Virus record (IMG/VR): IMGVR_UViG_3300045988_167502
Source of the DNA: a virus
Direction: 5' to 3' (one strand)
DNA length: 47,470 bases
Position 1 is the first letter of the stretch. Each line of letters begins with the position of its first letter. A program made the translations under genes and the position numbers. This document shows positions 1 through 47,470 of the stretch, in pieces. The notes beneath the pieces were generated by a model. That model did no database searches and was not told where the DNA came from. It saw nothing but the letters and a program-made list of their open reading frames with translations.

Positions 1-42
1 TTACGGCTCAGAAGGTTACAGGTTTGAATCCTGTCGAGGTCA
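1..42 (+). tRNA. 3' portion of host tRNA, probably tRNA-Arg(ACG); the 5' half lies upstream of the window
   Basis: 1..7 TTACGGC fits a 7-nt anticodon loop (U33, ACG, G37). 8..12 TCAGA is the anticodon-stem 3' strand and 13..17 AGGTT the variable loop. 18..34 is the T arm ACAGG/TTTGAAT/CCTGT, 35..41 the acceptor 3' strand, and A42 the discriminator. The pattern resembles known bacterial tRNA-Arg(ACG). Confidence 0.65.
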
Positions 43-43
43 C
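1..43 (+). repeat. attL core, 43-bp direct repeat identical to 47428..47470
   Basis: ttacggctcagaaggttacaggtttgaatcctgtcgaggtcac occurs exactly at both window ends. The integrase gene starts 113 bp inside. Confidence 0.9.
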
Positions 44-155: not shown

Positions 156-1319
156 ATGGTTACAAAAACAATGGACGGGTGTAGCTACTCCGAACTATGG
201 GTGTCCCCTGCCAACTGGCAAAAAGCTACTAAAAAAGACTTGGATAAAGATTGGTACGTGCAATGCGTTTTCTTTGACCCTCGTTTTGAAAAGAAATACC
301 CTAAGGGCTTCCCCTATCGAAAAAAGGCTAACAGACCTAATACTATAGAGGAACGAAAAGCGATGATTTCTTTTCTTCTTAAAAACATTCCTCATCAACT
401 TAATAATGGATTTAACCCGATATTAAAAAAGTACGTACAAGTTCACAAGGAGGGACTTTATCCTGAATTGCACTTTATTGAGGCTTTTAGGCGTGCATTG
501 GAAATAAAAGTAGGTACTAAAAAGCACCTATACGAAATACAATGCGCTATTAATAGACTTGAAAAGGCGTGTGAAGCCCTCGATTTGCAGACAGTTAAAA
601 TAAAGGACTTGCGCAGGGTAGATTTGAAGCGTATGCTCGACTGGTTGCGATTATCCGACAAATACTATAATAGGTTCGTGATATACTTTTCAAGTCTATA
701 CCGTGAGTTGATAGAGTACGAATGCTGCGAAAGTAATATCACAAGGGATATTTACCCTAAAAAGGTGATTAAAGAAGTCCGTACTATACTTACCGCTGAT
801 GAACTCATAAAAGTAAAAAACCACGTTCGATTTATTAATCCTGATTTTTATAGGTATATGATGATATTCCTATATTCAGGTGCACGTAATACCGAGCTTT
901 TCAGATTACAACGCAAAGATGTAGATTTGGACAAACAGGAGTTTGTAATACTGCTTGAAAAAGGCGGGCAGTACAAACGATGTACAAAGGTGATATTGTC
1001 TCCTGCATTAGAGTTTTGGAAAGAGATATGTAACAAGTGTAAAAGCGATAACGACTATCTTTTTGCACTTGATTTTGTTCCTAACAAGAAAATGGGTCAT
1101 ACCGAGATTGTTACCCGCTTTTGGAAGCGACACGTAAAGGATAAATTAGGCATTGAAGCTGATTTTTACGCCCTCAAACACTATATGCTTGATAACTTGG
1201 ACAGTGATACGGCTATGCTTTTAGCTTCGCACACTAACCAAAACACAACGGCTATATACCAAGTGAACAAAGCTAAAAGGGAGAGAGAGCGGCTGAAGCA
1301 GTTGGATATACAGATATAG
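156..1319 (+). CDS. int: tyrosine recombinase / phage integrase
   Basis: 387-aa ORF next to attL. Carries SGARNTELFRLQRKDVDL (Arg box) and a C-terminal HTNQNTTAIYQV (His...Tyr) motif. Confidence 0.9.
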   Translation: MVTKTMDGCSYSELWVSPANWQKATKKDLDKDWYVQCVFFDPRFEKKYPKGFPYRKKANRPNTIEERKAMISFLLKNIPHQLNNGFNPILKKYVQVHKEGLYPELHFIEAFRRALEIKVGTKKHLYEIQCAINRLEKACEALDLQTVKIKDLRRVDLKRMLDWLRLSDKYYNRFVIYFSSLYRELIEYECCESNITRDIYPKKVIKEVRTILTADELIKVKNHVRFINPDFYRYMMIFLYSGARNTELFRLQRKDVDLDKQEFVILLEKGGQYKRCTKVILSPALEFWKEICNKCKSDNDYLFALDFVPNKKMGHTEIVTRFWKRHVKDKLGIEADFYALKHYMLDNLDSDTAMLLASHTNQNTTAIYQVNKAKRERERLKQLDIQI

Positions 1320-6914: not shown

Positions 6915-6937
6915 TGTTATAGTGTATTAAGGTTGTA

Positions 6938-6966
6938 GTAAAAACGCCCCTATAAAGAGGCGTTTC
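6938..6966 (-). terminator. weak terminator hairpin after the lysis cassette
   Basis: AAACGCC (6942..6948) pairs with GGCGTTT (6959..6965), with a short U-run on the minus strand. Confidence 0.35.
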
Positions 6967-13736: not shown

Positions 13737-13851
13737 TTGTGAAAAAGTTAGTATTTTTTTGTTATAGATAATTTTACAAGTTTTTCTATGGCTTAGACTG
13801 AAAAGGGCGTGCTATCATTCAATAAAAAAAGCCCCAATTAAGGGGCTTTTT
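13737..13851 (+). ncRNA. candidate small transcript 1 (promoter 13725..13732 to hairpin 13824..13851)
   Basis: About 115 nt between a consensus -7 box and the AAAAGCCCC/GGGGCTTTT terminator. The only ATG gives a 2-codon ORF. Confidence 0.3.
13824..13851 (+). terminator. hairpin AAAAAAAGCCCC-AATTAA-GGGGCTTTTT
   Basis: Same hairpin as 1321..1344. Confidence 0.6.
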
Positions 13852-14985: not shown

Positions 14986-16374
14986 CTAATCCTTAAACAC
15001 TTCCTTTCCTTTTTCTTTCTCTATTTGAGCGAGTTCTTCATCTACGCGGTCAGTGATACCTGCCAAAATAACACCTTCTTTAAGTGAAGCTACCCCTCCT
15101 TGCACAGCGCTAACCGCGTCGGCTATCTTTTCGGTTAAGCTGTCAATCATATAAGGTACAATCTCTATACTGATTTGTGTTTGTTTGGCAATGCTGGCGT
15201 ATTTAGGGATAAGGCTTACTATTGCAGACAATAGGAAGTTGATACGGCGTTGTAAGAACTCTTCTACAGTCTCAGCGTGATTGCTCACTGCCATATGCGT
15301 ACCCATAAACATAAACTTAAATGCCTTACCGCTGAGGGCGTTGCCGATACCTTGTAAAGCTTCAAACGTAATTTGTGGGGTGTTAGTTAGTGCATAACAG
15401 CGGGAGGTGAGGTTATCAAACTCTAATTTTGCCATATCTGGGGACTGTTGCCAAGTGAGATAGGACACTTGTGCATCGTTTTCAAGTTGAATTATCTCGC
15501 TTCCCGTTCCTTTATTACGAGTGCCTTTCACATCGCCTGAAGCTACTAATTTGGGGTAGAAATTGTAGTCGAGACAATCGGCAAAGTTGGATAAGAGCAA
15601 CTCAAGGCGATTACGGAGTGTACGAATTTTATCGCACAATGGTCGTTCACGCTTCATATAGATAACAGGTATTTTGGAAAATCCGTGTTGATATTTCTCT
15701 TTTTGCGTGCCGTTGCTGTAAATTGTTACATTTTGGTTATCAATGACCATTAGGCGTGAGGTTTGTATGCCTTTGCTGTCCGTTTTGTTGTACTCACGGG
15801 AGAATGCTATAAGGTCGCCGTACTCATCGTAATATGGGTATAGGGTATCACCACGAAAGGGCGACCATATCATAGACTTAAGACGATAAGTAGGATTAGG
15901 GTCATCTTCCTTTGATGGTTTTACGTACCAATATTCAGCTACTTCGCATTCAGAGAACCAAGAGCGAACTATACGCTTGTTATCGTATTGTAGCTTGTTG
16001 CGCTTGTGTAGGTCAGTTAGAAGTTTAAATAATTCTTCTTGCTCTGTTTTATCGGTGTTTGCCGTGATTTTAGGAGGTGTACCTACCGTGAATGCGGTAT
16101 GAATATTGACAATATCCTGTTCTAATGGTAGAGCGAGGCGATTGACTTCTTCATCTTTGAATTTTGCTGGGGTATGAATTGTGCCGTCCTTATTATAGGT
16201 TGCCTCTTGGGTAAGCACCTTTCGTTTTGGTCGCAATTCAGGGTCGAAAATATCGTGCTTAGTATAGTCCCAATCTTTTAGGAGTAATTGTGTATCTGGG
16301 CGATTAGCTGGATATTTTTTGAGCTCGGCAATACGCGCGGCTTCGGGTAGTGCGAGTAGTTCTTGTAAGGTCAT
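14986..16374 (-). CDS. portal protein (SPP1 gp6-like size and position)
   Basis: 462 aa immediately upstream of the MuF-like gene. Confidence 0.65.
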   Translation of the reverse strand: MTLQELLALPEAARIAELKKYPANRPDTQLLLKDWDYTKHDIFDPELRPKRKVLTQEATYNKDGTIHTPAKFKDEEVNRLALPLEQDIVNIHTAFTVGTPPKITANTDKTEQEELFKLLTDLHKRNKLQYDNKRIVRSWFSECEVAEYWYVKPSKEDDPNPTYRLKSMIWSPFRGDTLYPYYDEYGDLIAFSREYNKTDSKGIQTSRLMVIDNQNVTIYSNGTQKEKYQHGFSKIPVIYMKRERPLCDKIRTLRNRLELLLSNFADCLDYNFYPKLVASGDVKGTRNKGTGSEIIQLENDAQVSYLTWQQSPDMAKLEFDNLTSRCYALTNTPQITFEALQGIGNALSGKAFKFMFMGTHMAVSNHAETVEEFLQRRINFLLSAIVSLIPKYASIAKQTQISIEIVPYMIDSLTEKIADAVSAVQGGVASLKEGVILAGITDRVDEELAQIEKEKGKEVFKD

Positions 16375-24826: not shown

Positions 24827-24844
24827 ATTGTAATATTTTATTAG

Positions 24845-24918
24845 TTGCGGGGGAAGGGCTCGAACCTTCGACCTCGTGCAAGTTAAACACGCAAGCTACC
24901 CAACTGCTCTACCCCGCT
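24845..24918 (-). tRNA. phage tRNA, initiator-like scaffold, anticodon loop UUAACUU (formal anticodon AAC)
   Basis: 74-nt cloverleaf. Acceptor G2-G7/C66-C71 with an A1xA72 mismatch and A73. D stem GAGC/GCTT with A11:U24. Anticodon stem CGTGT/GCACG. T arm GAAGG-TTCGAGC-CCTTC. Confidence 0.7.
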
Positions 24919-24933: not shown

Positions 24934-25010
24934 CGGCGACTATTGCTATATAGTGCTCTTCGTGTTTAGTAAAAAGTTAGTAATTATTTAGTAATTGATA
25001 TTTTTTAAAT

Positions 25011-25033
25011 AAAGCCCCTTAATTGGGGCTTTT
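25011..25033 (-). terminator. hairpin AAAGCCCC-AATTAA-GGGGCTTT (minus-strand reading)
   Basis: Third copy of the conserved hairpin, directly after the stop of 25035..25751. Confidence 0.55.
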
Positions 25034-27366: not shown

Positions 27367-28269
27367 ATGGAAAATAAACATAACATATCTCACGAAGGTA
27401 TTTTAAATTTAGGAGGTATTTCTATACCTTGCTATGTACTTCAAGACGGTACAAGGGTATTGTCAGGGCGTGGTATGCAAGAAGCTTTAAAAATGGTAGA
27501 TGAGTCGGAAGATGGTAAGCAAACAGCAGGGACACGATTAAACAGATATTTGAATCAAAAAAGCCTTAATCCTTTCATTTACAAGGGTAAGGAGCCGGAC
27601 CACTTTAATCCTATAATTTGCTATAAGGGTACTCAAAAAATCAATGGATATGAGGCTACTATTTTAGCGGATATATGTGAGGCTTTTCTTGAAGCTCGTA
27701 ACTATATAGAGCTTTCTACACGACAAAGAGTTATAGCTGACCAATGTGAAATTCTTATTAGAGGTTTTGCAAGGGTAGGGATTACTGCTCTTGTTGATGA
27801 GGCTACAGGTTATCAGTATGAAAGGGAACGGGATGCTTTGCAATCTATCTTAAAAGCATATATAAATGAGGAGCTTCTAAAATGGCAAAAGTTATTTCCT
27901 GATATTTTTTATTATGAAATATTCCGATTAAATAATTGGGATTATACTGTAAAAGGGATTCAAAAGCGTCCAGGTGTAATAGGAAAATGGACAAATGAGC
28001 TTATATACAAACAGTTGCCAAAAGGTGTATTAGAAGAGTTGAAAAATAGGACTCCTAAAAGTTCAGAGGGTAATTATACAGCTCGTTTCTTTCAAAGTTT
28101 AACACCTGATATAGGGCACCCTGCTTTGACTGCACAAATTTATAAGGTAATTGGTTTGATGAATATTTCTAAAAATTGGAGTGAATTCAAAAGCAATTTC
28201 AATAAAATGGTCAATAGAAATAATGGTCAAACTGAAATAGACTTTGATAGTGTAGAAGAGGATTTATAA
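27367..28269 (+). CDS. P63C-domain-like phage protein
   Basis: HEGILNLGGISIPCYVLQDGTRVLSGRGMQEAL resembles P63C-family proteins (from memory, not searched). Confidence 0.5.
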   Translation: MENKHNISHEGILNLGGISIPCYVLQDGTRVLSGRGMQEALKMVDESEDGKQTAGTRLNRYLNQKSLNPFIYKGKEPDHFNPIICYKGTQKINGYEATILADICEAFLEARNYIELSTRQRVIADQCEILIRGFARVGITALVDEATGYQYERERDALQSILKAYINEELLKWQKLFPDIFYYEIFRLNNWDYTVKGIQKRPGVIGKWTNELIYKQLPKGVLEELKNRTPKSSEGNYTARFFQSLTPDIGHPALTAQIYKVIGLMNISKNWSEFKSNFNKMVNRNNGQTEIDFDSVEEDL

Positions 28270-29114: not shown

Positions 29115-29132
29115 AACGTTAAAAGTAACGTT
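29115..29132. promoter_or_regulatory. palindromic operator candidate AACGTTA-AAAG-TAACGTT
   Basis: Perfect 7-bp inverted repeat with a 4-bp spacer. The flank TTTTGCAACGTTAA is shared with 44444..44461. Confidence 0.5.
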
Positions 29133-35443: not shown

Positions 35444-36262
35444 TCACAAATCTCCAATATTACGCACCACCCCCGATTTGCCACCCTTCTGCCCCTTCTG
35501 TGGGGTTTCTGTATAGAGTTGGGTATCTGTTAGTCCGGCATTATAAAACGTGCTAAAATGGTCAGGCTCTAACATTTTATCAGGAGATAGTGTGAATTGC
35601 GGGTAAATCTGCTTCTGAATGAACACGCCTTTTATTGCTAAATCGATTTCTCCTTGCGTGTAGTTCTTAGCAACTTCGATGAGATTCATCTTAGCATTCC
35701 CTAATATCACCACATTGCCTATTGCGCCAACATTATAATGTCGCTTAGCGTCATTCCAACGTTTAGCGAGCCACGCTGCCAGCGCTATGGTATCTCCTTT
35801 AAAATCGTCATAGGCTTTTAAAGTCGATTTTGCCTCTTTCGGTTTTTCCTCGTGCGTGTGCGTGTTTGTTTGTTTGTTTATATTATTATAAACATTATCA
35901 TTATCATTATCATTAGGGTTATCTTCGGTTATGTTGGGTAATGTTGGGTTATCTTCGGTTATCTTTGGGTTATCTTTTTTCTCGTAATAAGGATTAGATT
36001 TTCCTTTCGCAAAATTCGGATTACCTCCCTTCTTCCCATTCTCTTTATTAACCGCTAATTTCTTTTGATAACTTTCAGAAAACGCATCTAAATCTAATTT
36101 GATAAATTCAAAAGCCATTTCAACTTTATCGTCTGTTGAGCCTGCATTTGCCCCGTTCTCCACATATTCGAATAACATTTTGAAAAGAACGCCTGCCTGC
36201 TTGTCGGACAATTTATTGACCACACTTCCGTATTTAGTCTTTAGAATAAATGTATCTTTCAT
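35444..36262 (-). CDS. putative replication initiator/organiser with internal iterons
   Basis: The N-terminus KLSDKQAGVLFKMLFEYVENG resembles DUF6291-type phage replication proteins. The central low-complexity ITEDNP repeats are encoded by DNA iterons. Confidence 0.35.
   Translation of the reverse strand: MKDTFILKTKYGSVVNKLSDKQAGVLFKMLFEYVENGANAGSTDDKVEMAFEFIKLDLDAFSESYQKKLAVNKENGKKGGNPNFAKGKSNPYYEKKDNPKITEDNPTLPNITEDNPNDNDNDNVYNNINKQTNTHTHEEKPKEAKSTLKAYDDFKGDTIALAAWLAKRWNDAKRHYNVGAIGNVVILGNAKMNLIEVAKNYTQGEIDLAIKGVFIQKQIYPQFTLSPDKMLEPDHFSTFYNAGLTDTQLYTETPQKGQKGGKSGVVRNIGDL
35916..35976. repeat. iteron-like repeats: GGGTTATCTTCGGTTAT x2 (35916, 35946), GGGTTATCTT (35967), GGGTAAT (35936)
   Basis: Direct repeats next to the AT-rich (ATCATT)3 tract at 35897..35914 and a GT-rich tract at 35861..35880. 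Confidence 0.5.
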
Positions 36263-40820: not shown

Positions 40821-41199
40821 TATTTTTTAATTTAAATTCAATTCCTTCAGATTTATAATCACATAATTTGTAAACAATGGCGAGTAAATCGTATAGTTTT
40901 TGATTTATCTGCTTCTTTTCTACTTCCTCTGGTAAAAACATTCTTTCAAAAATTTCAAGCAGACGAGCTTCCTCATAAGTGGCAGATATGTTATTTTTAC
41001 CCTTTATCTCATACCCTTCATAACCTTTCCACTTGTCGTTAAAAACAATAGGTCTTTCGTGGTCTAATTCTCTTATCTTTACAATAGAGTGCCTTATTCT
41101 CATCCTATCATCTATGGAAATTCCTTTGTCTTTCAGAAATTCCATTATCTCGGATAGAATTTTATTTTTTTTAGTTTCTCTTTCTTTTGCTGTGTCCAT
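40798..41199 (-). CDS. hypothetical protein
   Basis: 133-aa ORF. Confidence 0.5.
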   Translation of the reverse strand: MDTAKERETKKNKILSEIMEFLKDKGISIDDRMRIRHSIVKIRELDHERPIVFNDKWKGYEGYEIKGKNNISATYEEARLLEIFERMFLPEEVEKKQINQKLYDLLAIVYKLCDYKSEGIEFKLKNNGNTRTN

Positions 41200-41233
41200 A
41201 TTCCATATATTTTACTTATAAAAACTTCTACTT

Positions 41234-42001
41234 TTATGCAGTTTGTTCATTAAATATTTTCTTGTCAGTAATGAGTTCTCTGTTACCTTCCAAAAACTCA
41301 ATGAACCGCTCGCATACCTCCCTTAATTGTGGTATATCTAACTTAGGCATATAAGCGTAATTCTCTTTATACACACTCTTAAAATCGGTGACTAAATATT
41401 CAAAATCGGTCATCTCAATACCTTGCTGATTTAAGCAGTAAGGATATACTATGTGTTGCCAATTGTTGCGGTACTTGAAAGCATTGTATTTGCCTGTTGT
41501 CTTTAAATCGACAATCTTGAATGGCAGTAAGTAGTCTAAGTACCCGTACAAAAAGACTTCACCATATTGAGTACTAATAGTTCCTTCTACTCGGTATTGA
41601 GTAAGCGCATTATCCTCTTTCAAAGGAGTTGCTATACTCTTAGCAAGTTCCTTTGAAAAAGCGAACTGCCTGCCATTGATTATTGCCATTATTACCTCGC
41701 CCTCGCTGTGAATATCTATCTTAGTGGTCTTGCGCCCCTCAACTATGCAATCTATCACCTCATTGAATGCTGTTCCCTTGTCAGCGGCTTCACTCTCGAA
41801 TGGCACTCTATTAATACGGTTAATGAGTTCTTGGAAGGCTTGACGCTCGTACTCCTCCTCTGTCAGCGTTGGGGCTTCTGATGAGCCCCAAAACTGCTGA
41901 TAGATTACCGATGAATTAAGGTAGTTCGTAAAACTATCCAACAACGTAGGATATATGTTATACTGCTTCATACTGCTTGCTTTCTTTGTTGAATTTCGCA
42001 T
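41234..42001 (-). CDS. PD-(D/E)XK nuclease (Cas4/RecB-like exonuclease)
   Basis: YGYLDYL...KIVDLKTT motif. Overlaps the ATPase gene. Confidence 0.55.
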   Translation of the reverse strand: MRNSTKKASSMKQYNIYPTLLDSFTNYLNSSVIYQQFWGSSEAPTLTEEEYERQAFQELINRINRVPFESEAADKGTAFNEVIDCIVEGRKTTKIDIHSEGEVIMAIINGRQFAFSKELAKSIATPLKEDNALTQYRVEGTISTQYGEVFLYGYLDYLLPFKIVDLKTTGKYNAFKYRNNWQHIVYPYCLNQQGIEMTDFEYLVTDFKSVYKENYAYMPKLDIPQLREVCERFIEFLEGNRELITDKKIFNEQTA

Positions 42002-42902
42002 TCAAAGTCGCCGCTTTCTCATTGAGTTTGCGGCCCGCCACTATCTTAGAGTTGCCGATATGTTGCCACTCCTGTATTCGTTGAGCAGTTTCATTAAGGC
42101 TGTCTATATCTGTGATAACCGCTATATTGTCGTCAATCTCTTTAATGAGCTTTTGGTATGCTTCATTAGCCTTGCGGTGTTGTTCTAACCTCGCATTATA
42201 CGCCTCAATTACGTGCGTTGTGAAGAAGTCGTTAGGTGCGGTAGGGTTGCCCTGCTCATCGATGATAGTAGGTATCTTGAACAACGGAGGTAAGTTGCAC
42301 GAGTTCTTACCGTCATTACGTGAGGTAGGGTCAAAGGTGATAGTACGCTCACGCCCTTGCGCTTCTACATACCCTACAAGGTCTAACTCTGTCACAAGGT
42401 TGTCATAGTTTGTGCCTCCGAATTGAGGAATGTAGCGAGTGTCGTCGCCTTCTGTTTTTGTTTCCCTATGAGCGACGAATACCACGTGCTTGTTCATTAT
42501 GCTAATACGTTTTACAAGTGCTGAAAACATCATCTTACGTTCTCCAAAGCCTTGTAGTGTTAGCATACCATTTGCTTTTCCCATTTTGGGGTTATTCTTA
42601 ATGATATACTCGCCCATAAAGTCTAACATCTTTCCTCCTGTATCAATAACAAAGGTTTCATAAGGAGTTAGATTTTCATTCACAAGCACGTCCAAGAAGT
42701 CTTGATAAGAGCGATTCTGTACAGTGTCCACATCTTGTAAGTGTGCAAAGTTCACACGGTGCACTCCATTGTCAAAGTCAAAAAGTAATGGCTTTGGTGA
42801 TGATAGCGCAAGGGTAGTCTTCCCTGTTCCAGCTTGCCCATAGATAAGGGCTTTAATTTTAGTCTGAATTGTAAGCTCGTTCGCTTTTTTTATTAAACTC
42901 AT
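41958..42902 (-). CDS. AAA_24/Sak4-like recombination ATPase
   Basis: Walker A GQAGTGKTT and synteny with the nuclease and SSB genes. Confidence 0.65.
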   Translation of the reverse strand: MSLIKKANELTIQTKIKALIYGQAGTGKTTLALSSPKPLLFDFDNGVHRVNFAHLQDVDTVQNRSYQDFLDVLVNENLTPYETFVIDTGGKMLDFMGEYIIKNNPKMGKANGMLTLQGFGERKMMFSALVKRISIMNKHVVFVAHRETKTEGDDTRYIPQFGGTNYDNLVTELDLVGYVEAQGRERTITFDPTSRNDGKNSCNLPPLFKIPTIIDEQGNPTAPNDFFTTHVIEAYNARLEQHRKANEAYQKLIKEIDDNIAVITDIDSLNETAQRIQEWQHIGNSKIVAGRKLNEKAATLNAKFNKESKQYEAV

Positions 42903-43026
42903 TCTTCTGTATATTTAATTGTTAATTATTATTCTTAAAGAAAGTGCCGTGCGTTGTTGTGATGAATTATGTACAGATTTAAGGATAACACGACACTTTT
43001 CTACGTGTATGAATTAATTAAATGAT

Positions 43027-43251
43027 TTATTCTTCTCTTAATAGGTAGTCGGTGGCTGCTTTTTTAGTATCGAATATTTCGCCCTCATCAAAGTTGTTAT
43101 ACTCGCCACTCTCGAACTTCAGCCCGTAGGATATTTGCTTATTTTTCTCCCACGCTTCTACCATTATACACTCTACCTTTGCAAGGGCTATCTTGTTGCC
43201 ACATATAGTATATACATTGTTACCGATATCGTATTTAATCTGTAATTTCAT
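43027..43251 (-). CDS. hypothetical protein
   Basis: 74-aa ORF. Confidence 0.45.
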   Translation of the reverse strand: MKLQIKYDIGNNVYTICGNKIALAKVECIMVEAWEKNKQISYGLKFESGEYNNFDEGEIFDTKKAATDYLLREE

Positions 43252-43263
43252 AGTGGTAAGAAT

Positions 43264-43872
43264 TTAAAGTGTTAAACTGTGCCAATCATTAGTAAGGTTA
43301 TCCATATTATGAGCGTACGCCATTGCTCTTTCAGTTTCGTAGTAATCAGCTCTGCGCTCTTCTTCTGCTTCTTTATCAAGCCTCTGATACTCTTCATTGA
43401 GCAAGTCTGTTAGTACTTCTATTTGCTCATTTGAAAATTGCAAATCGTAATACTCGCCCTTGTACAATACATAACTCTCATTGTACACTATCTGAATAGT
43501 TGAGCGGTGAGTACCCTTATCAAACACCCACGCACCTCGTATGGATAACTCATATACCCCGTGCTTAGCCTCGATACCAAACTCATCAATATTACTATCT
43601 TCAATGCTGTGTATCTTGCTCACTAAGCAATCAAACATTGCCTTGCTTACCTTACCACTGGGGGTGTAATTCTCTTTTGTCATTGTAAAAACATTTACAG
43701 GAAGTCTGCGTTTCTTACTGCCTCGCACCACGTGCAGAGCCTCGTTAAACGCCTCTTTTTCAAACGGCACGCACTCTTCATAACGCTTGCCGTTCATCGT
43801 TACATAGCCACCAATTAGAAGAATTTGGCTATTTTGTTTTGCTGTTTCCATTTTTTGTTGTAATTTTGCCAT
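43264..43872 (-). CDS. hypothetical protein
   Basis: 202-aa ORF. Confidence 0.5.
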   Translation of the reverse strand: MAKLQQKMETAKQNSQILLIGGYVTMNGKRYEECVPFEKEAFNEALHVVRGSKKRRLPVNVFTMTKENYTPSGKVSKAMFDCLVSKIHSIEDSNIDEFGIEAKHGVYELSIRGAWVFDKGTHRSTIQIVYNESYVLYKGEYYDLQFSNEQIEVLTDLLNEEYQRLDKEAEEERRADYYETERAMAYAHNMDNLTNDWHSLTL

Positions 43873-43941
43873 CGTAAAAAATTTTTAGAATTATTAAATT
43901 AATATTTAGTTAAGGCGACGCTGTGAAGTGTCGCTTTTTTG

Positions 43942-44181
43942 TTAGCTGTTTTGTCGGTAGCGTTCGCACTCGGCAAAGAATTGAGCCTCATACTTTGATA
44001 TATCTACCACTTTCTTTTGTCTTTTAGAAGACGGCTTGCTACCTTCCACAATAGCAAGCTCGTCATTGGTACGAATAATCTCATTTGTGAGAGTTCTTAT
44101 TGTTGATTCAAGACATAGCTTTGTAGTCTCTAATTCTTTTATCTTACTCTTTAATTGTCGTATGTGCTGTTGCTTGTTCAT
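43942..44181 (-). CDS. hypothetical coiled-coil protein
   Basis: 79-aa ORF. Confidence 0.45.
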   Translation of the reverse strand: MNKQQHIRQLKSKIKELETTKLCLESTIRTLTNEIIRTNDELAIVEGSKPSSKRQKKVVDISKYEAQFFAECERYRQNS

Positions 44182-44425
44182 ATCTCAACGTTCTATACTT
44201 ACTAAGTAGTGTTTCTTTTTCTTCTTCACTTTCAAACTCGAACAAATCATCTATATTGTCGGTTTGAACGAATTTCTTTAAAGGGATGTAATTTTCTATC
44301 TTCAAAAACATATAAGGACGCCTATACAGCCAGTGGCTAATAGTTACAGGCTGCTTACCCACCTCGATAGAGAAGTCAGCTATACGATTTACAATAATAC
44401 TTCTTGCTTCGCTTGTTAATCTCAT
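44144..44425 (-). CDS. first early gene, possible Cro-like HTH
   Basis: IADFSIEVGKQPVTISHWLYRR is HTH-like. Sits directly downstream of the operator and promoter. Confidence 0.3.
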   Translation of the reverse strand: MRLTSEARSIIVNRIADFSIEVGKQPVTISHWLYRRPYMFLKIENYIPLKKFVQTDNIDDLFEFESEEEKETLLSKYRTLRYEQATAHTTIKE

Positions 44426-44434
44426 ATTATTTAT

Positions 44435-44442
44435 TACTTTTG
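44435..44442 (+). promoter_or_regulatory. -7 box TACTTTTG facing the DUF4041/T5orf172 gene
   Basis: The only consensus match upstream of 44580. Confidence 0.4.
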
Positions 44443-44443
44443 C

Positions 44444-44461
44444 AACGTTAATTCTAACGTT
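44444..44461. promoter_or_regulatory. palindromic operator candidate AACGTTA-ATTC-TAACGTT
   Basis: Perfect inverted repeat between back-to-back -7 boxes (44435..44442 plus strand, 44476..44483 minus strand). Confidence 0.55.
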
Positions 44462-44475
44462 TTAGTTTTACGGTG

Positions 44476-44483
44476 CAAAGATA
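44476..44483 (-). promoter_or_regulatory. -7 box (reverse complement TATCTTTG), early leftward promoter
   Basis: Consensus match 51 nt upstream of the start at 44425. Confidence 0.55.
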
Positions 44484-44579
44484 CAAACATTTACTAACAT
44501 AACAAATATTTTTTACAAAAATGTTAGTTTTTATTTGTTATATTTTTTTTAATTAATTGATTTTTAAATAAATAGAAAT

Positions 44580-45950
44580 ATGAGTTTTTTTGATTTTTTG
44601 AAGAAAAAAGAGTTAGAAAGAATAAAATACTTAGAAAATAAGGTGAAAGATTTAGAAACCCAAACCGATTATTTGTCTAAATCTCTAACAAAGTATTCTC
44701 CATTAATAGATTTAGAAAGGGAAGCTCAGAAATTGCAGGATGATATAAATAAGATAGAGAAAGATAAAATATTAATTCTAAATCAATATGAACAACTAAA
44801 AAAACAATACCAAACGGCTCTTGTAACTTATGAGGAATTAAAAAAGAAAATAAGTGTATTTGAAGAAGACTTAGAAATGGCAGAGTATGGAGTTTATCAA
44901 CCTCACTTCAGTTTTGATACTTCTGAGGAGTATAAACAGAAAATACTTTTTTATAGGAATGAGGCTAAAGCTATGATAAAAGAGGATACTGCTGTAAACG
45001 GTGGTCATAATATCACTTGGAATGGTAGCCTTTCAAAAGGACAAGCTATGGTGAAAAGGGAAAAACAACTGATGTTGCGCGCTTTTAACGGCGAAACAGA
45101 TAGTTTTATAGCTAATGTAGATTGGAATAATATTCTAAAACTGGAAGAGCGATTGAATAAATCATTTGAAGCTATAAATAAGGTATATAAGGAACAAGGA
45201 TTAGCTATTTCTGAAGCGTATAAAAGTTATAAAGTATGGGAACTACAACTAACTTATGAATATAAAAAGAAGTTACAAGAAGAACGGGAAGAACAAAGGG
45301 CTATTCGAGAACAAATGAGAGAGGAGGAACGTGCTGAAAAAGAACTTGAAGCAGCAAGAATAAAGGCTGAAAAAGAGGAAATTATGTATATAAAAGCCCT
45401 CGAAAAGGCACGTAAAGAAGTAGGAACTGCCATAGGCAAAAAACAAGAGGAATTATTACAAAGAATAGCGGAACTTGAGGCTGGGCTTTCAGGGGTTGAA
45501 ACCTTGAAACAAAAAGCTATATCAATGGCACAGCAAACAAAAATGGGTTATGTTTATGTAATTTCTAATATAGGTGCTTTTGGTGATGATGTATATAAAA
45601 TAGGGATGACACGTAGGATTGAACCTACAGACAGAGTAAAAGAACTTGGTGATGCAAGTGTCCCTTTTCCATTTGATATTCACGCTATGATTTTTTCAGA
45701 AAACGCTCCAGAACTTGAAACAAAGCTGCATAACATTTTCGTAGACAATCGAGTGAATATGACTAACTATAAAAGGGAGTTTTTTAATATTTCATTAGAA
45801 CGGATAGAAGAAGAGGCTAAAAAATTAGGCGCAAAGGTAGAATTTACTAAACTTGCAGAAGCAAAAGAATATAGAGAAACACAAGCGTTGAAAAAACAAC
45901 TCTCACATCCAATAAAAGATGAAAAAACAGAGTTTCCTAAAACCATTTAG
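44580..45950 (+). CDS. DUF4041-like plus T5orf172 (GIY-YIG-superfamily) domain protein
   Basis: YGVYQPHFSFDTSEEYK...LRAFNGETDSFIANVDWNN, an E/K/R coiled coil, and a C-terminal GYVYVISN...VYKIGMTRR...RVKELG...PFPFD...KLHN. Confidence 0.75.
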   Translation: MSFFDFLKKKELERIKYLENKVKDLETQTDYLSKSLTKYSPLIDLEREAQKLQDDINKIEKDKILILNQYEQLKKQYQTALVTYEELKKKISVFEEDLEMAEYGVYQPHFSFDTSEEYKQKILFYRNEAKAMIKEDTAVNGGHNITWNGSLSKGQAMVKREKQLMLRAFNGETDSFIANVDWNNILKLEERLNKSFEAINKVYKEQGLAISEAYKSYKVWELQLTYEYKKKLQEEREEQRAIREQMREEERAEKELEAARIKAEKEEIMYIKALEKARKEVGTAIGKKQEELLQRIAELEAGLSGVETLKQKAISMAQQTKMGYVYVISNIGAFGDDVYKIGMTRRIEPTDRVKELGDASVPFPFDIHAMIFSENAPELETKLHNIFVDNRVNMTNYKREFFNISLERIEEEAKKLGAKVEFTKLAEAKEYRETQALKKQLSHPIKDEKTEFPKTI

Positions 45951-46025
45951 AAATATATGGGAAACACTATATTGGGGGAATGATATCTACTTAAAAAATA
46001 ATAGGAAAGATGTAGCAATTTTCTT

Positions 46026-46169
46026 TTAACAGCCTCTTATTAGTTGTACAATTACTAATATAGAAAAAACAATACTAAAAAATGATGCACAAAGTACAAA
46101 TATAACCATTGCTATATTTAGTATCCTTTCTATTTTATCATCATCTATGAACGGTGCTTTATTACTCAT
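46026..46169 (-). CDS. 47-aa single-pass membrane protein MSNKAPFIDDDKIERILNIAMVIFVLCASFFSIVFSILVIVQLIRGC
   Basis: The track start (TTG at 46232) lies upstream of the -7 box at 46198..46205. The ATG at 46169 fits that promoter. Confidence 0.45.
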   Translation of the reverse strand: MSNKAPFIDDDKIERILNIAMVIFVLCASFFSIVFSILVIVQLIRGC

Positions 46170-46197
46170 AACAACGTAATGTTTAATTTTTAAAGTG

Positions 46198-46205
46198 CAA
46201 AGGTA
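46198..46205 (-). promoter_or_regulatory. -7 box (reverse complement TACCTTTG) abutting the repressor ATG
   Basis: Consensus match. Overlaps the first base of the ATG at 46205. Confidence 0.45.
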
Positions 46206-47155
46206 TGGAAAATAATTCAAAAAAACAAACAAATGTTAGTACTGGAAGTTCTAAGAGATTAGAAGAACTATTATTACATTTGAAAATGAGTTATAATAAG
46301 TTTGCGAAGGAAATAGGGCTAAAAGATAATGTTAAAGTCTATCACATAAAAAATGGTAGAAACGAGATAAGTGCCGATTTAGCAAATGCCATTACTGCAA
46401 CTTTCCCTCAAATTAGTTATCAATGGCTTCTTACTGGCAACGGTGAAATGCTCGTACAAAATACTCTTAAAGAAGAACCCGAAGAAGAAGAGGAAACATA
46501 CCTAAGAGCCGAGCGTAACAGATATGCCTTATCCTTGCAACGCATTCAAGAACTCACCAACTTACCTATGAAAAAACTCAAAGCCTACGACAATGGCGAT
46601 GAGAATATACCTGATGATATATTGGAAGCTTTTGAGAACCTTTTTCAGAGGATAGAAAACGAATATAACGAGAGTGAGGAACAAGACGACTCTTTACCAG
46701 TGCTTATAACTGATGATATGGTTTCCAATGTAAAAGTACCTTTCTATGAGGTAGATTTTGCAGGAGGCTTTAATTCCCCTGAAATGTTTTCACAAGTGAA
46801 ACCTTCGTTTGTTATCAGCTCTCCAAGTTTTGCGGGGGCAGACTTCGCTTGTGTGCTCACAGGAAACTCAATGTCAAAACGCATAAAAAGTGGTTCTGTA
46901 ATAGGTCTTAAAGAAATTAAAGAATGGTGGGAGTATTTCCCTACTAATGAAATATACGCCATAGTAACCAAAAATGGGTTACGAACTGTAAAAATTGTAA
47001 AAAGAAGTAAGAAAGAAGGGTATATAGACCTTATACCAGACCCATTACCTGAATTTAATAATCCTTCGTTTGAAATGGAAACTATACGAATGAATTATGT
47101 AATAGGATTTTATCAGGTAATAGCACACGCATTCTATGAAAGAATGGCTTTTTAG
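46205..47155 (+). CDS. CI/LexA-type repressor (phage CI HTH plus S24 peptidase)
   Basis: N-terminal FAKEIGLKDNVKVYHIKNGRNEIS...WLLTGNGEM. C-terminal VDFAGGF (Ala-Gly site), TGNSM (Ser) and VKIVKR (Lys). Confidence 0.8.
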   Translation: MENNSKKQTNVSTGSSKRLEELLLHLKMSYNKFAKEIGLKDNVKVYHIKNGRNEISADLANAITATFPQISYQWLLTGNGEMLVQNTLKEEPEEEEETYLRAERNRYALSLQRIQELTNLPMKKLKAYDNGDENIPDDILEAFENLFQRIENEYNESEEQDDSLPVLITDDMVSNVKVPFYEVDFAGGFNSPEMFSQVKPSFVISSPSFAGADFACVLTGNSMSKRIKSGSVIGLKEIKEWWEYFPTNEIYAIVTKNGLRTVKIVKRSKKEGYIDLIPDPLPEFNNPSFEMETIRMNYVIGFYQVIAHAFYERMAF

Positions 47156-47323
47156 ATAGATTTTAACCAATAAATATTAAAACCAATGGAAATAGAAGTA
47201 GAACTCTCATAGACTCATTAGACGATATATACACCTATAAGGAACGACTATTACATACAATAGAAAATTACGATTAATAAGCGTGTAATGTATTTTCATA
47301 CAATAAGTTATATATGAACTTAC

Positions 47324-47335
47324 CGACAAGGTAAA
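47324..47335 (+). repeat. CGACAAGGTAAA, second copy (attR arm)
   Basis: Exact match to 121..132. Confidence 0.35.
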
Positions 47336-47427
47336 ATATAGACAAAATAGCTAAAATCATACTTTTGACGTTTTAAAAGTCACTGAAAATAAGAATGTTA
47401 TAAAATGAGATTTTTGTCCGTTTCCGT

Positions 47428-47470
47428 TTACGGCTCAGAAGGTTACAGGTTTGAATCCTGTCGAGGTCAC
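47428..47470 (+). repeat. attR core, partial tRNA 3' copy
   Basis: Identical to 1..43. The upstream sequence TCCGT cannot form the anticodon stem, so this copy is not a full tRNA. Confidence 0.9.

Follow-up and report, generated by a model that had tools for sequence, protein, structure and literature searches.

PD-λ-1 was discovered by functional selection in Escherichia coli (Vassallo et al. 2022; PMC9519451) and was renamed SNIPE in a mechanistic study (Saxton et al. 2026, Nature; PMC13190303). In the E. coli protein, an N-terminal transmembrane (TM) helix holds the protein in the inner membrane, DUF4041 faces the cytoplasm, where it binds DNA and forms crosslinks with the tape-measure protein, and a C-terminal GIY-YIG nuclease, inactivated for defense by the E414A substitution, cuts siphovirus DNA during injection (PMC13190303). 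A resident prophage is left untouched on induction, SNIPE deprived of its TM helix is toxic and cuts the nucleoid, and the membrane-bound form is auto-inhibited as well (PMC13190303). Independent evidence comes from Streptococcus thermophilus, in which a homolog provides defense against several siphovirus genera (PMC12322248). Here, we analyzed the 47,470-nucleotide virus record IMGVR_UViG_3300045988_167502 of IMG/VR, the whole of which is referred to below as the window. A 456-amino-acid (aa) open reading frame (ORF), located between the leftward early operon and the repressor gene of a prophage, was found to encode what is with little doubt a member of this already characterized family, that is, of a known and not a new system. 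The protein belongs to the less-studied class of SNIPE proteins that have no TM helix.

Membership in the SNIPE (PD-λ-1) family

The family match spans the full length of the protein. Against the PADLOC PD-Lambda-1 model PDLC03976, residues 10-455 aligned with profile positions 51-490 of 491 (E = 1.5e-159, 530 bits), and the second PADLOC model, PDLC03977, gave E = 4.3e-156. The protein also matched PHROG 1847 (E = 3e-143), and in the precomputed Pfam annotation of the protein collection PF13250 now bears the name 'SNIPE'. A direct comparison is offered by a gene of Escherichia phage PhiR26_1 that is annotated 'PD-lambda-1'; since all nine wild-type residues that the SNIPE paper names are present in its product, the latter is E. 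coli SNIPE itself or a near-identical protein. The window protein shares 44-49% identity with it over aa 66-438, and the identity to SNIPE amounts to 45% in the DUF4041 region, 55% in the linker (aa 231-321), 56% in the nuclease, and 22% in the first 100 residues. Both the GIY and the YIG motifs are kept, and E380 aligns with the catalytic E414 of SNIPE. The family is large, comprising at least 7,992 proteins at E ≤ 1e-10 in a 90%-identity collection and 4,322 representatives at E ≤ 1e-3 in a 50%-identity collection.

The reading frame itself is well delimited, because an in-frame stop located four codons 5′ of the ATG excludes an N-terminal extension. It opposes the leftward early operon, and the repressor gene lies downstream of it on the same strand (Table 1). 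DUF4041 (PF13250) was detected with E = 2.9e-18 and 65.9 bits against a gathering score of 27, and the two models for the C-terminal module, T5orf172 (PF10544; E = 2e-15, 57.6 bits) and the related MUG113 (PF13455; aa 339-415, E = 1.3e-18, 67.8 bits), scored above their gathering scores as well. Beyond DUF4041 and the GIY-YIG module, the Pfam scan revealed no domain in the protein, be it an ATPase, a helicase, or a helix-turn-helix (HTH), and NCBIfam holds no family for it. Residues G323, Y326, K340-I341-G342, R345, R346, R352, E380, N396, and E400 of the nuclease are invariant in 68 homologs, and so is the R-A-F-N-G-E core of DUF4041 (R167-E172). A further PADLOC match, to the candidate system PDC-S57 with its T5orf172 protein, covered the nuclease domain only (aa 320-435 against profile positions 3-112 of 212, E = 2.5e-21) and is an instance of a shared domain, not of membership.

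The AlphaFold2 model of the protein (mean pLDDT 79) is elongated and mostly helical, with a C-terminal α/β domain at residues 323-441; the published shape of SNIPE is likewise elongated and helical with a C-terminal α/β domain (PMC13190303). A profile search of the PDB sequences with the protein returned coiled-coil noise only, indicating that no SNIPE structure has been solved. When the whole model was compared with the PDB by Foldseek, there was no significant match, only weak alignments to the GIY-YIG protein Slx1 (E = 0.8-2.9), and the use of a whole elongated, mostly helical model as the query may explain this weakness.

Much of what the first-pass annotation, made from the sequence alone, had proposed for this gene was borne out. 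It had described an ORF running against the early operon in the slot before the repressor, and this ORF is real; both domains that it named, DUF4041 and T5orf172, exceed their Pfam gathering scores, and its long charged coiled coil corresponds to helices predicted by AlphaFold2. Its suggestion of a prophage-borne, single-gene, nuclease-type anti-phage or exclusion gene agrees with the full-length PADLOC match and the homology to SNIPE. Two of its statements have to be replaced. Its view that the sequence discloses no function no longer holds, as a mechanism has been published for the family, and the region in front of the nuclease, vaguely termed a sensor, can be described in the terms established for SNIPE, where DUF4041 has DNA and the tape-measure protein as its ligands and membrane localization depends on the N-terminus (PMC13190303). 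The prophage gene can be named a SNIPE (PD-λ-1) family defense nuclease instead of a 'DUF4041 hypothetical protein'.

The N-terminus and the proposed mode of action

The PADLOC alignment begins at position 51 of the profile and skips the first 50 positions. The four closest homologs, which share the N-terminus of the window protein, have a maximal 19-residue Kyte-Doolittle mean of about 0 in their first 120 residues, and none of the 120 closest homologs of the window protein reaches a value of 1.0, compared with 3.4 for E. coli SNIPE. A TM helix is present in E. coli SNIPE, ES18 gp19, a Klebsiella phage homolog, and the CDMH1 protein, for which the highest 19-residue means are 2.1-3.4. Among the 150 best representatives at 50% identity, 126 have a TM-like segment and 24 have none. 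The published survey of SNIPE homologs reported a TM helix in 66% and none in 34% (PMC13190303), and since it accepts the latter as members, a missing TM helix does not exclude a protein from the family.

At the position of the TM helix of other members, the window protein has a short conserved motif (Table 1). Conservation by column among the 68 homologs is 0.76 for aa 1-15, equal to that of the nuclease domain, versus 0.40 for aa 16-100. In the TM-less Bacteroidota clade the motif reads M-[GSA]-[FL]-F-D-F-[LI]-K-[KR]-K-E-x-x-x-I, its strict form being matched by 97 of the 120 closest homologs, and in an alignment of eight sequences it lies over the TM helix of E. coli SNIPE and ES18 gp19, directly before a shared R-I-K segment. 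Similar starts occur in TM-less homologs from other phyla, as exemplified by PLE3 (MGILDIFKSNEF), Javan180 (MGLFNFGKIK), and representatives beginning with MGLFNKKE, MGIFDKSKRR, and MALFDFFKKAE.

This motif resembles the beginning of E. coli MinE (residues 2-12, MALLDFFLSRKK). Common to both is the pattern M-x-Φ-Φ-D-Φ-Φ followed by a basic cluster, with F3, F4, F6, and L7 of the window protein at the positions of MinE L3, L4, F6, and F7, and a homolog, P0070, has the MinE-like start MALLDFIKKKE. In MinE, the substitutions L3E, L4E, F6E, and F7E disrupt membrane binding (PMC5473585). The likeness concerns the short motif, the remainder of the SNIPE protein having no homology to MinE, and it is an analogy and not a family assignment. 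As a lead, this resemblance makes the motif a candidate peripheral membrane-targeting sequence, and motif and coiled coil together may replace the TM anchor as a peripheral membrane-targeting and oligomerization device. The SNIPE paper sorts the N-termini of TM-less proteins into coiled-coil, DivIVA, DUF2510, T3SS-ATPase, and PH-like classes, and the words 'amphipathic' and 'MinE' do not occur in its text (PMC13190303).

A bolder proposal, tentative enough that it may well prove wrong, is that a TM-less clade, found throughout Bacteroidota and with look-alike N-termini in Firmicutes phages, would have a MinE-like M-G-Φ-F-D-F-L-K-K-K in the place of the integral anchor and would bind the membrane peripherally, and that in this prophage lineage SNIPE would sit in a two-position cargo hotspot between face-to-face promoters and the repressor. 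If the MinE-like reading were true, membrane binding would possibly be reversible or conditional, and the nuclease, instead of having a permanent tether, would come to the membrane or to injection sites by recruitment. Since E. coli SNIPE needs its TM anchor to spare the chromosome, a natural anchorless clade with a conserved motif would offer a direct test of self-sparing.

As to the mode of action, we consider it probable that the window protein is a SNIPE-family defense nuclease, carried as accessory cargo by a temperate siphovirus at a tRNA-Arg gene of a Flavobacteriales host, which cuts incoming siphovirus DNA at the membrane. In the lysogen, the protein would be located at the inner face of the cytoplasmic membrane, where its DUF4041 domain would bind the DNA entering from a superinfecting siphovirus and the tape-measure protein of that phage, and its C-terminal GIY-YIG domain, with E380 as the catalytic residue, would cut the phage genome during injection. 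Neither the chromosome nor the resident prophage would be cut, as neither is presented where injection takes place. With the family membership, the conserved catalytic and DUF4041 residues, the prophage context, and the behavior as cargo observed here, we infer that the protein acts in defense in a Flavobacteriales host, and the prophage probably protects this host from other siphoviruses.

Several points weigh against cleavage at the membrane by this protein. The experimental evidence on the family comes from proteins of E. coli and S. thermophilus, outside Bacteroidota. The window protein lacks a TM helix, while removal of the helix makes E. coli SNIPE a toxic protein that cuts the nucleoid, so that safe operation of the window protein would need an alternative localization or inhibition. 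The idea of an amphipathic helix was not supported for the N-terminal motif, as its hydrophobic moment (0.27-0.39) was equalled by 61% of shuffles; the MinE membrane-targeting sequence is also low on this measure, and only the resemblance in hydrophobic cluster plus basic residues is retained. A Pfam scan of three N-terminal regions at E values up to 10 yielded sub-cutoff generic coiled-coil matches only, with DivIC and PspA_IM30 far below their cutoffs and DivIVA not among the matches listed, and, no Pfam family exceeding its cutoff, the N-terminus is assigned to none. Foldseek support for the GIY-YIG fold is weak, the best probability being 0.54. Finally, the promoter assignment and the expression in the lysogen considered below were derived from motifs, and TAnnTTTG occurs in the window at chance frequency (69 found versus 64.6 expected).

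The alternative that best survives, though we regard it as unlikely, is a cytoplasmic SNIPE-family nuclease that is held inactive by the coiled coil or a partner and is released on infection, acting as an abortive-infection or post-injection effector. It would account for the absence of TM helices from all of the 120 closest homologs and for the unexceptional hydrophobic moment of the motif, and even membrane-bound SNIPE is auto-inhibited (PMC13190303). However, the toxicity of TM-less E. coli SNIPE is hard to reconcile with such a protein, the first 15 residues are strongly conserved exactly at the TM position of other members, membrane-associating N-terminal modules were found in TM-less homologs by the published survey (PMC13190303), and there is no conserved partner gene, since the neighbors vary. 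Cleavage of incoming DNA at the membrane is the reading that we prefer.

The cargo slot and the switch region

Related prophages were collected by searching IMG/VR with the repressor, a procedure that is blind to the presence of SNIPE, and 16 fragments were obtained, 15 of which cover the slot. In 8 of these 15, the 93-aa first early gene and the repressor have SNIPE, 91-99% identical, between them, and the slot of the other 7 holds other cargo instead (Table 1). A divergent first early gene (44-46% identity) is found in four of the fragments (L008, L009, L011, and L027). There is a second variable position on the minus strand beside the repressor, occupied by a 47/68-aa, 72-aa, 84-aa, or 139-aa gene. 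In the window it holds a small ORF that, from its most likely start, the ATG at 46169, would encode 47 aa with one hydrophobic helix and has a −7 box, TACCTTTG, at 46198-46205 on the minus strand; searches of Pfam, PHROG, PADLOC, and NCBIfam gave no family match for it. In SNIPE-bearing sister prophages, the same position is taken by unrelated 72-aa or 84-aa genes.

SNIPE thus occurs beside three unrelated small genes (47/68 aa, 72 aa, and 84 aa) and with three repressor N-terminal (HTH) types, and elsewhere it is found beside an integrase or alone, as would be expected of a single-gene system. This variety of neighbors and repressor types indicates an independent single-gene cargo in a recombination hotspot; cargo genes are shuffled independently of repressor type. 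The other occupants of this slot (the 440-, 197-, and 150-aa proteins plus the small minus-strand genes) are candidates for uncharacterized exclusion or defense genes and, as such, reasonable candidates for new functions in Bacteroidota. To our knowledge, few exclusion or defense systems of this kind have been tested in that phylum. PADLOC gave no credible match for the alternative cargo proteins, nor for two plus-strand genes (1624-2154 and 2151-2618) that stand in a typical cargo position between the integrase and the tape-measure gene of the window.

The first-pass annotation had called the slot a classic moron or immunity-region position, and it is indeed a variable cargo position in the related prophages. 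The neighborhoods of more distant homologs, which it had proposed to look at, proved to be lysogeny modules or moron positions of temperate phages. Homologs neighbor an integrase and a tape-measure gene, immediately follow an HTH-S24 repressor, or lie at a prophage edge; in the lambdoid PhiR26_1, SNIPE is located between ren and rha; the homologous gene of ES18 is annotated 'possible moron'; and in temperate phages of Streptococcus, Clostridioides, and Corynebacterium the homolog lies between repressor and integrase or beside the integrase. One distant homolog stands alone, surrounded by housekeeping genes of a chromosome.

T5orf172 and GIY-YIG domains are frequent among the homing endonucleases of phages, and the gene could be pictured as a selfish GIY-YIG homing-endonuclease-like or other mobile nuclease, whose scattered occurrence in the slot (8 of 15 related prophages) reflects its own mobility and not selection for defense. 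The low GC content of the gene, 0.326, which is the third lowest of 37 ORFs (mean 0.383, standard deviation 0.032), would fit this picture as well as that of a defense cargo. We consider a selfish nuclease very improbable. The full-length architecture of DUF4041, linker, and nuclease is that of the validated defense protein, slots without SNIPE hold unrelated non-nuclease cargo rather than an empty target site, and a family member is also found among chromosomal housekeeping genes. Pfam detects no extra sequence-specific DNA-binding module. Membership among I-TevI-like homing endonucleases was rejected, as there is neither an added DNA-binding domain by Pfam nor an empty slot allele. Equally hard to credit is a phage-intrinsic role in the lysis-lysogeny switch, replication, or segregation, for which the location between the switch promoters and the repressor and the labels of homologs in several phage records ('putative regulatory protein', 'chromosome segregation ATPase', 'replication', 'helicase') might speak, but these labels are uncurated and mutually inconsistent, no ATPase, helicase, or HTH domain was detected by Pfam, and close prophages with the same switch and repressor types do without the gene, which is therefore dispensable for the phage life cycle.

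Table 1. Features of the prophage and of the cargo slot (window positions, except where a related fragment is named by its L number)
Feature	Position	Strand	Remark
attL, 43-bp direct repeat	1..43		100% identical to 47428-47470
Tyrosine integrase	156..1319		
TMP_3 tape-measure protein, 1,422 aa	2643..6914		
SPP1-type portal	14986..16374		
First gene of leftward early operon, 93 aa	44144..44425	−	kept in related prophages, 73-88% identity
Switch region between early operon and cargo gene	44426..44579		17% GC
Rightward TAnnTTTG, TACTTTTG	44435..44442	+	candidate −7 box
18-bp palindrome, AACGTTAATTCTAACGTT	44444..44461		AACGTTA-N4-TAACGTT
Leftward TAnnTTTG	44476-44483	−	candidate −7 box
Elements varying with repressor type, ~15 bp each	~44486-44500 and ~44513-44528		from switch-region comparison
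Second rightward −7-like box, near-consensus TTTATTTG	44530..44537	+	perfect TATTTTTG in L021
SNIPE / PD-λ-1 family gene	44580..45950	+	456-aa ORF, ATG start; PADLOC, PHROG 1847, identity to E. coli SNIPE
Conserved N-terminal motif, MSFFDFLKKKELERI	aa 1-15, 44580..44624	+	at TM position of other family members
Variable N-terminal coiled coil	aa 6-102, 44595..44885	+	AlphaFold2 helices 6-37, 40-102; lowest conservation in protein
DUF4041 core (PF13250)	aa 164-217, 45069..45230	+	Pfam; invariant R167-A-F-N-G-E172
Long charged α-helical linker	aa 212-321, 45213..45542	+	AlphaFold2 helices 212-283, 287-321
GIY-YIG nuclease domain (T5orf172/MUG113)	aa 323-415, 45546..45824	+	Pfam; motifs GYVY 323-326, YKIG 339-342, R345/R346/R352
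Codon of catalytic Glu E380	45717-45719	+	alignment with SNIPE E414
Small ORF between SNIPE and repressor	46026..46232	−	convergent with SNIPE, overlaps repressor start; likely ATG 46169
Repressor, CI/LexA-type, 316 aa	46205..47155	+	Peptidase_S24 E = 1.7e-7; HTH matches below cutoff; PHROG 4 'transcriptional repressor' E = 1.2e-16
attR, 43-bp direct repeat	47428..47470		matches 3′ end of tRNA-Arg(ACG) in Flavobacteriales
Alternative slot cargo, L015	L015: 4393-5715	+	440-aa coiled-coil protein, two C-terminal hydrophobic helices
Alternative slot cargo, L017, L020, L021	L017: 4949-5542, 5478-5897	+, −	197-aa protein with N-terminal TM and 139-aa protein with C-terminal TM
Alternative slot cargo, L019, L023, L026	L026: 5270-5722, 5706-5924	+, −	150-aa protein and 72-aa protein

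The switch regions of 17 sequences, the window plus 16 related loci, were compared. In the rightward box closest to the early operon, TA and TTTG are invariant in 17 of 17 sequences, with CT, AT, TC, or TT as the middle two bases, and the leftward TAnnTTTG showed the same pattern of invariance. The two boxes would fit real Bacteroidota −7 boxes facing each other about 40 bp apart, a face-to-face promoter arrangement known from coliphages 186 and P2. Of the claim that this rightward box, followed by the palindrome, is the only consensus promoter of the cargo gene, the box and the adjacent palindrome stand; its uniqueness does not, as the second rightward box is another candidate and is closer to the start codon of SNIPE. 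A σ70-type promoter scan returned 13 promoter-like sites versus 14.6 expected, its model not fitting Bacteroidota promoters.

The palindrome occurs twice in the window, the second copy being at 29115-29132, versus 0.04 occurrences expected, and both copies follow TTTTGC. The co-regulation that had been proposed to act through it finds no support as control by the repressor: the palindrome stays the same with five repressor HTH types, and a role as the repressor or immunity operator was thereby ruled out. It is absent from L008 and L027, both of which have the divergent first early gene (the switch regions of L009 and L011 lie outside the comparison). The palindrome may be bound by the 93-aa early protein, acting in the manner of Cro, Cox, or Apl, or by a different regulator of the phage. 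Folded as RNA, it gives a weak hairpin (−5.4 kcal/mol, z = −1.5). The sequences that change in step with the N-terminal type of the repressor are found at ~44486-44528, flanking the presumed −33 element of the leftward promoter.

No terminator-like site was found after SNIPE in the terminator scan, and the stretch from SNIPE to the start of the repressor gene contains no consensus −7 box on the plus strand, so that cargo and repressor could share a lysogenic transcript. Transcription of the cargo from the rightward promoter would mean that the lysogen expresses it, and the motifs suggest such expression for the SNIPE gene, perhaps on the same rightward transcript as the repressor.

The prophage, and comparison with known systems

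The window is a complete siphovirus-type prophage, and the perfect 43-bp repeats at its two ends indicate that it holds exactly one. Exact copies of the repeat were found in at least 120 contigs, and almost all of those listed are from Flavobacteriales, including Capnocytophaga; in C. sputigena, the matching sequence is the 3′ end of tRNA-Arg(ACG). The host may be placed in the Flavobacteriales and is possibly a Capnocytophaga. There was no match to the repressor in GTDB representative genomes, and megablast of 41000-47470 against cultured phage genomes gave none either. Sister prophages with the same lysogeny module have other host genes beyond the repressor end (rsmH-ftsL-PBP, FtsX-RbfA, or CBS-PhoH), which suggests integration at other sites.

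Several further observations concern the body of the prophage. A tRNA-Val(AAC) gene lies at 24844-24918 on the minus strand, between structural and other genes. Within the ORF 35444..36262, four overlapping copies of a ~23-nucleotide sequence (GGGTTATCTTCGGTTATGTTGGG-like) follow each other at intervals of 10 bp (35916-35968); they are iteron-like and could mark a replication origin. A second gene against the minus-strand flow, at 27367-28269 on the plus strand, encodes a 300-aa P63C-domain protein (E = 5e-30) and may be another moron. A GC-rich hairpin followed by a T-run (AAAAAGCCCCAATTAAGGGGCTTTT) occurs at 1316-1344, 6937-6965, 13822-13850, and 25005-25033, in each case at or just past the end of a nearby ORF, and these four are probably intrinsic terminators with one common sequence.

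Compared with E. coli SNIPE, the window protein has the same order of parts, namely, an N-terminal localization region, DUF4041, a long helical linker, and a C-terminal GIY-YIG (T5orf172) domain, and both are products of a single, often phage-borne gene. They differ at the N-terminus, where E. coli SNIPE has its TM helix and the window protein has MSFFDFLKKKE followed by a coiled coil. They also differ at seven of eight DUF4041 and linker positions mutated in the SNIPE paper, which comprise seven substitutions that enhanced defense against phage Bas14 and the crosslinking site N250 (PMC13190303): W257 corresponds to Q223 and E264 to K230 in the window protein, and only E223 (E189 in the window protein) is common to both. 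These differences suggest a different tape-measure specificity. The host of the window prophage, moreover, belongs to Bacteroidota, with no ManYZ-type partner implied.

A second comparison is with the DUF4041 proteins of ES18 (gp19), the Streptococcus Javan prophages, C. difficile phage CDMH1, and Corynebacterium phage Poushou, which belong to the same family with 36-43% identity and are, like the window gene, morons or lysogeny-module genes beside a repressor or integrase. The TM-less Javan180 and PLE3 proteins share with the window protein a start that is hydrophobic and then basic. In contrast, all of these are known from sequence in other host phyla and at other genome positions, and ES18 gp19 and the CDMH1 protein have a TM helix.

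In its arrangement, the locus recalls rexAB of phage λ, which is co-transcribed with cI: in both cases a defense gene neighbors the repressor gene, shares its strand, and would be expected to be active in the lysogen. The cargo of the window lies upstream of its repressor, whereas rexAB lies downstream, and the proteins are unrelated. The mechanisms would differ as well, direct cleavage at entry being proposed for the window SNIPE versus abortive infection for rexAB.

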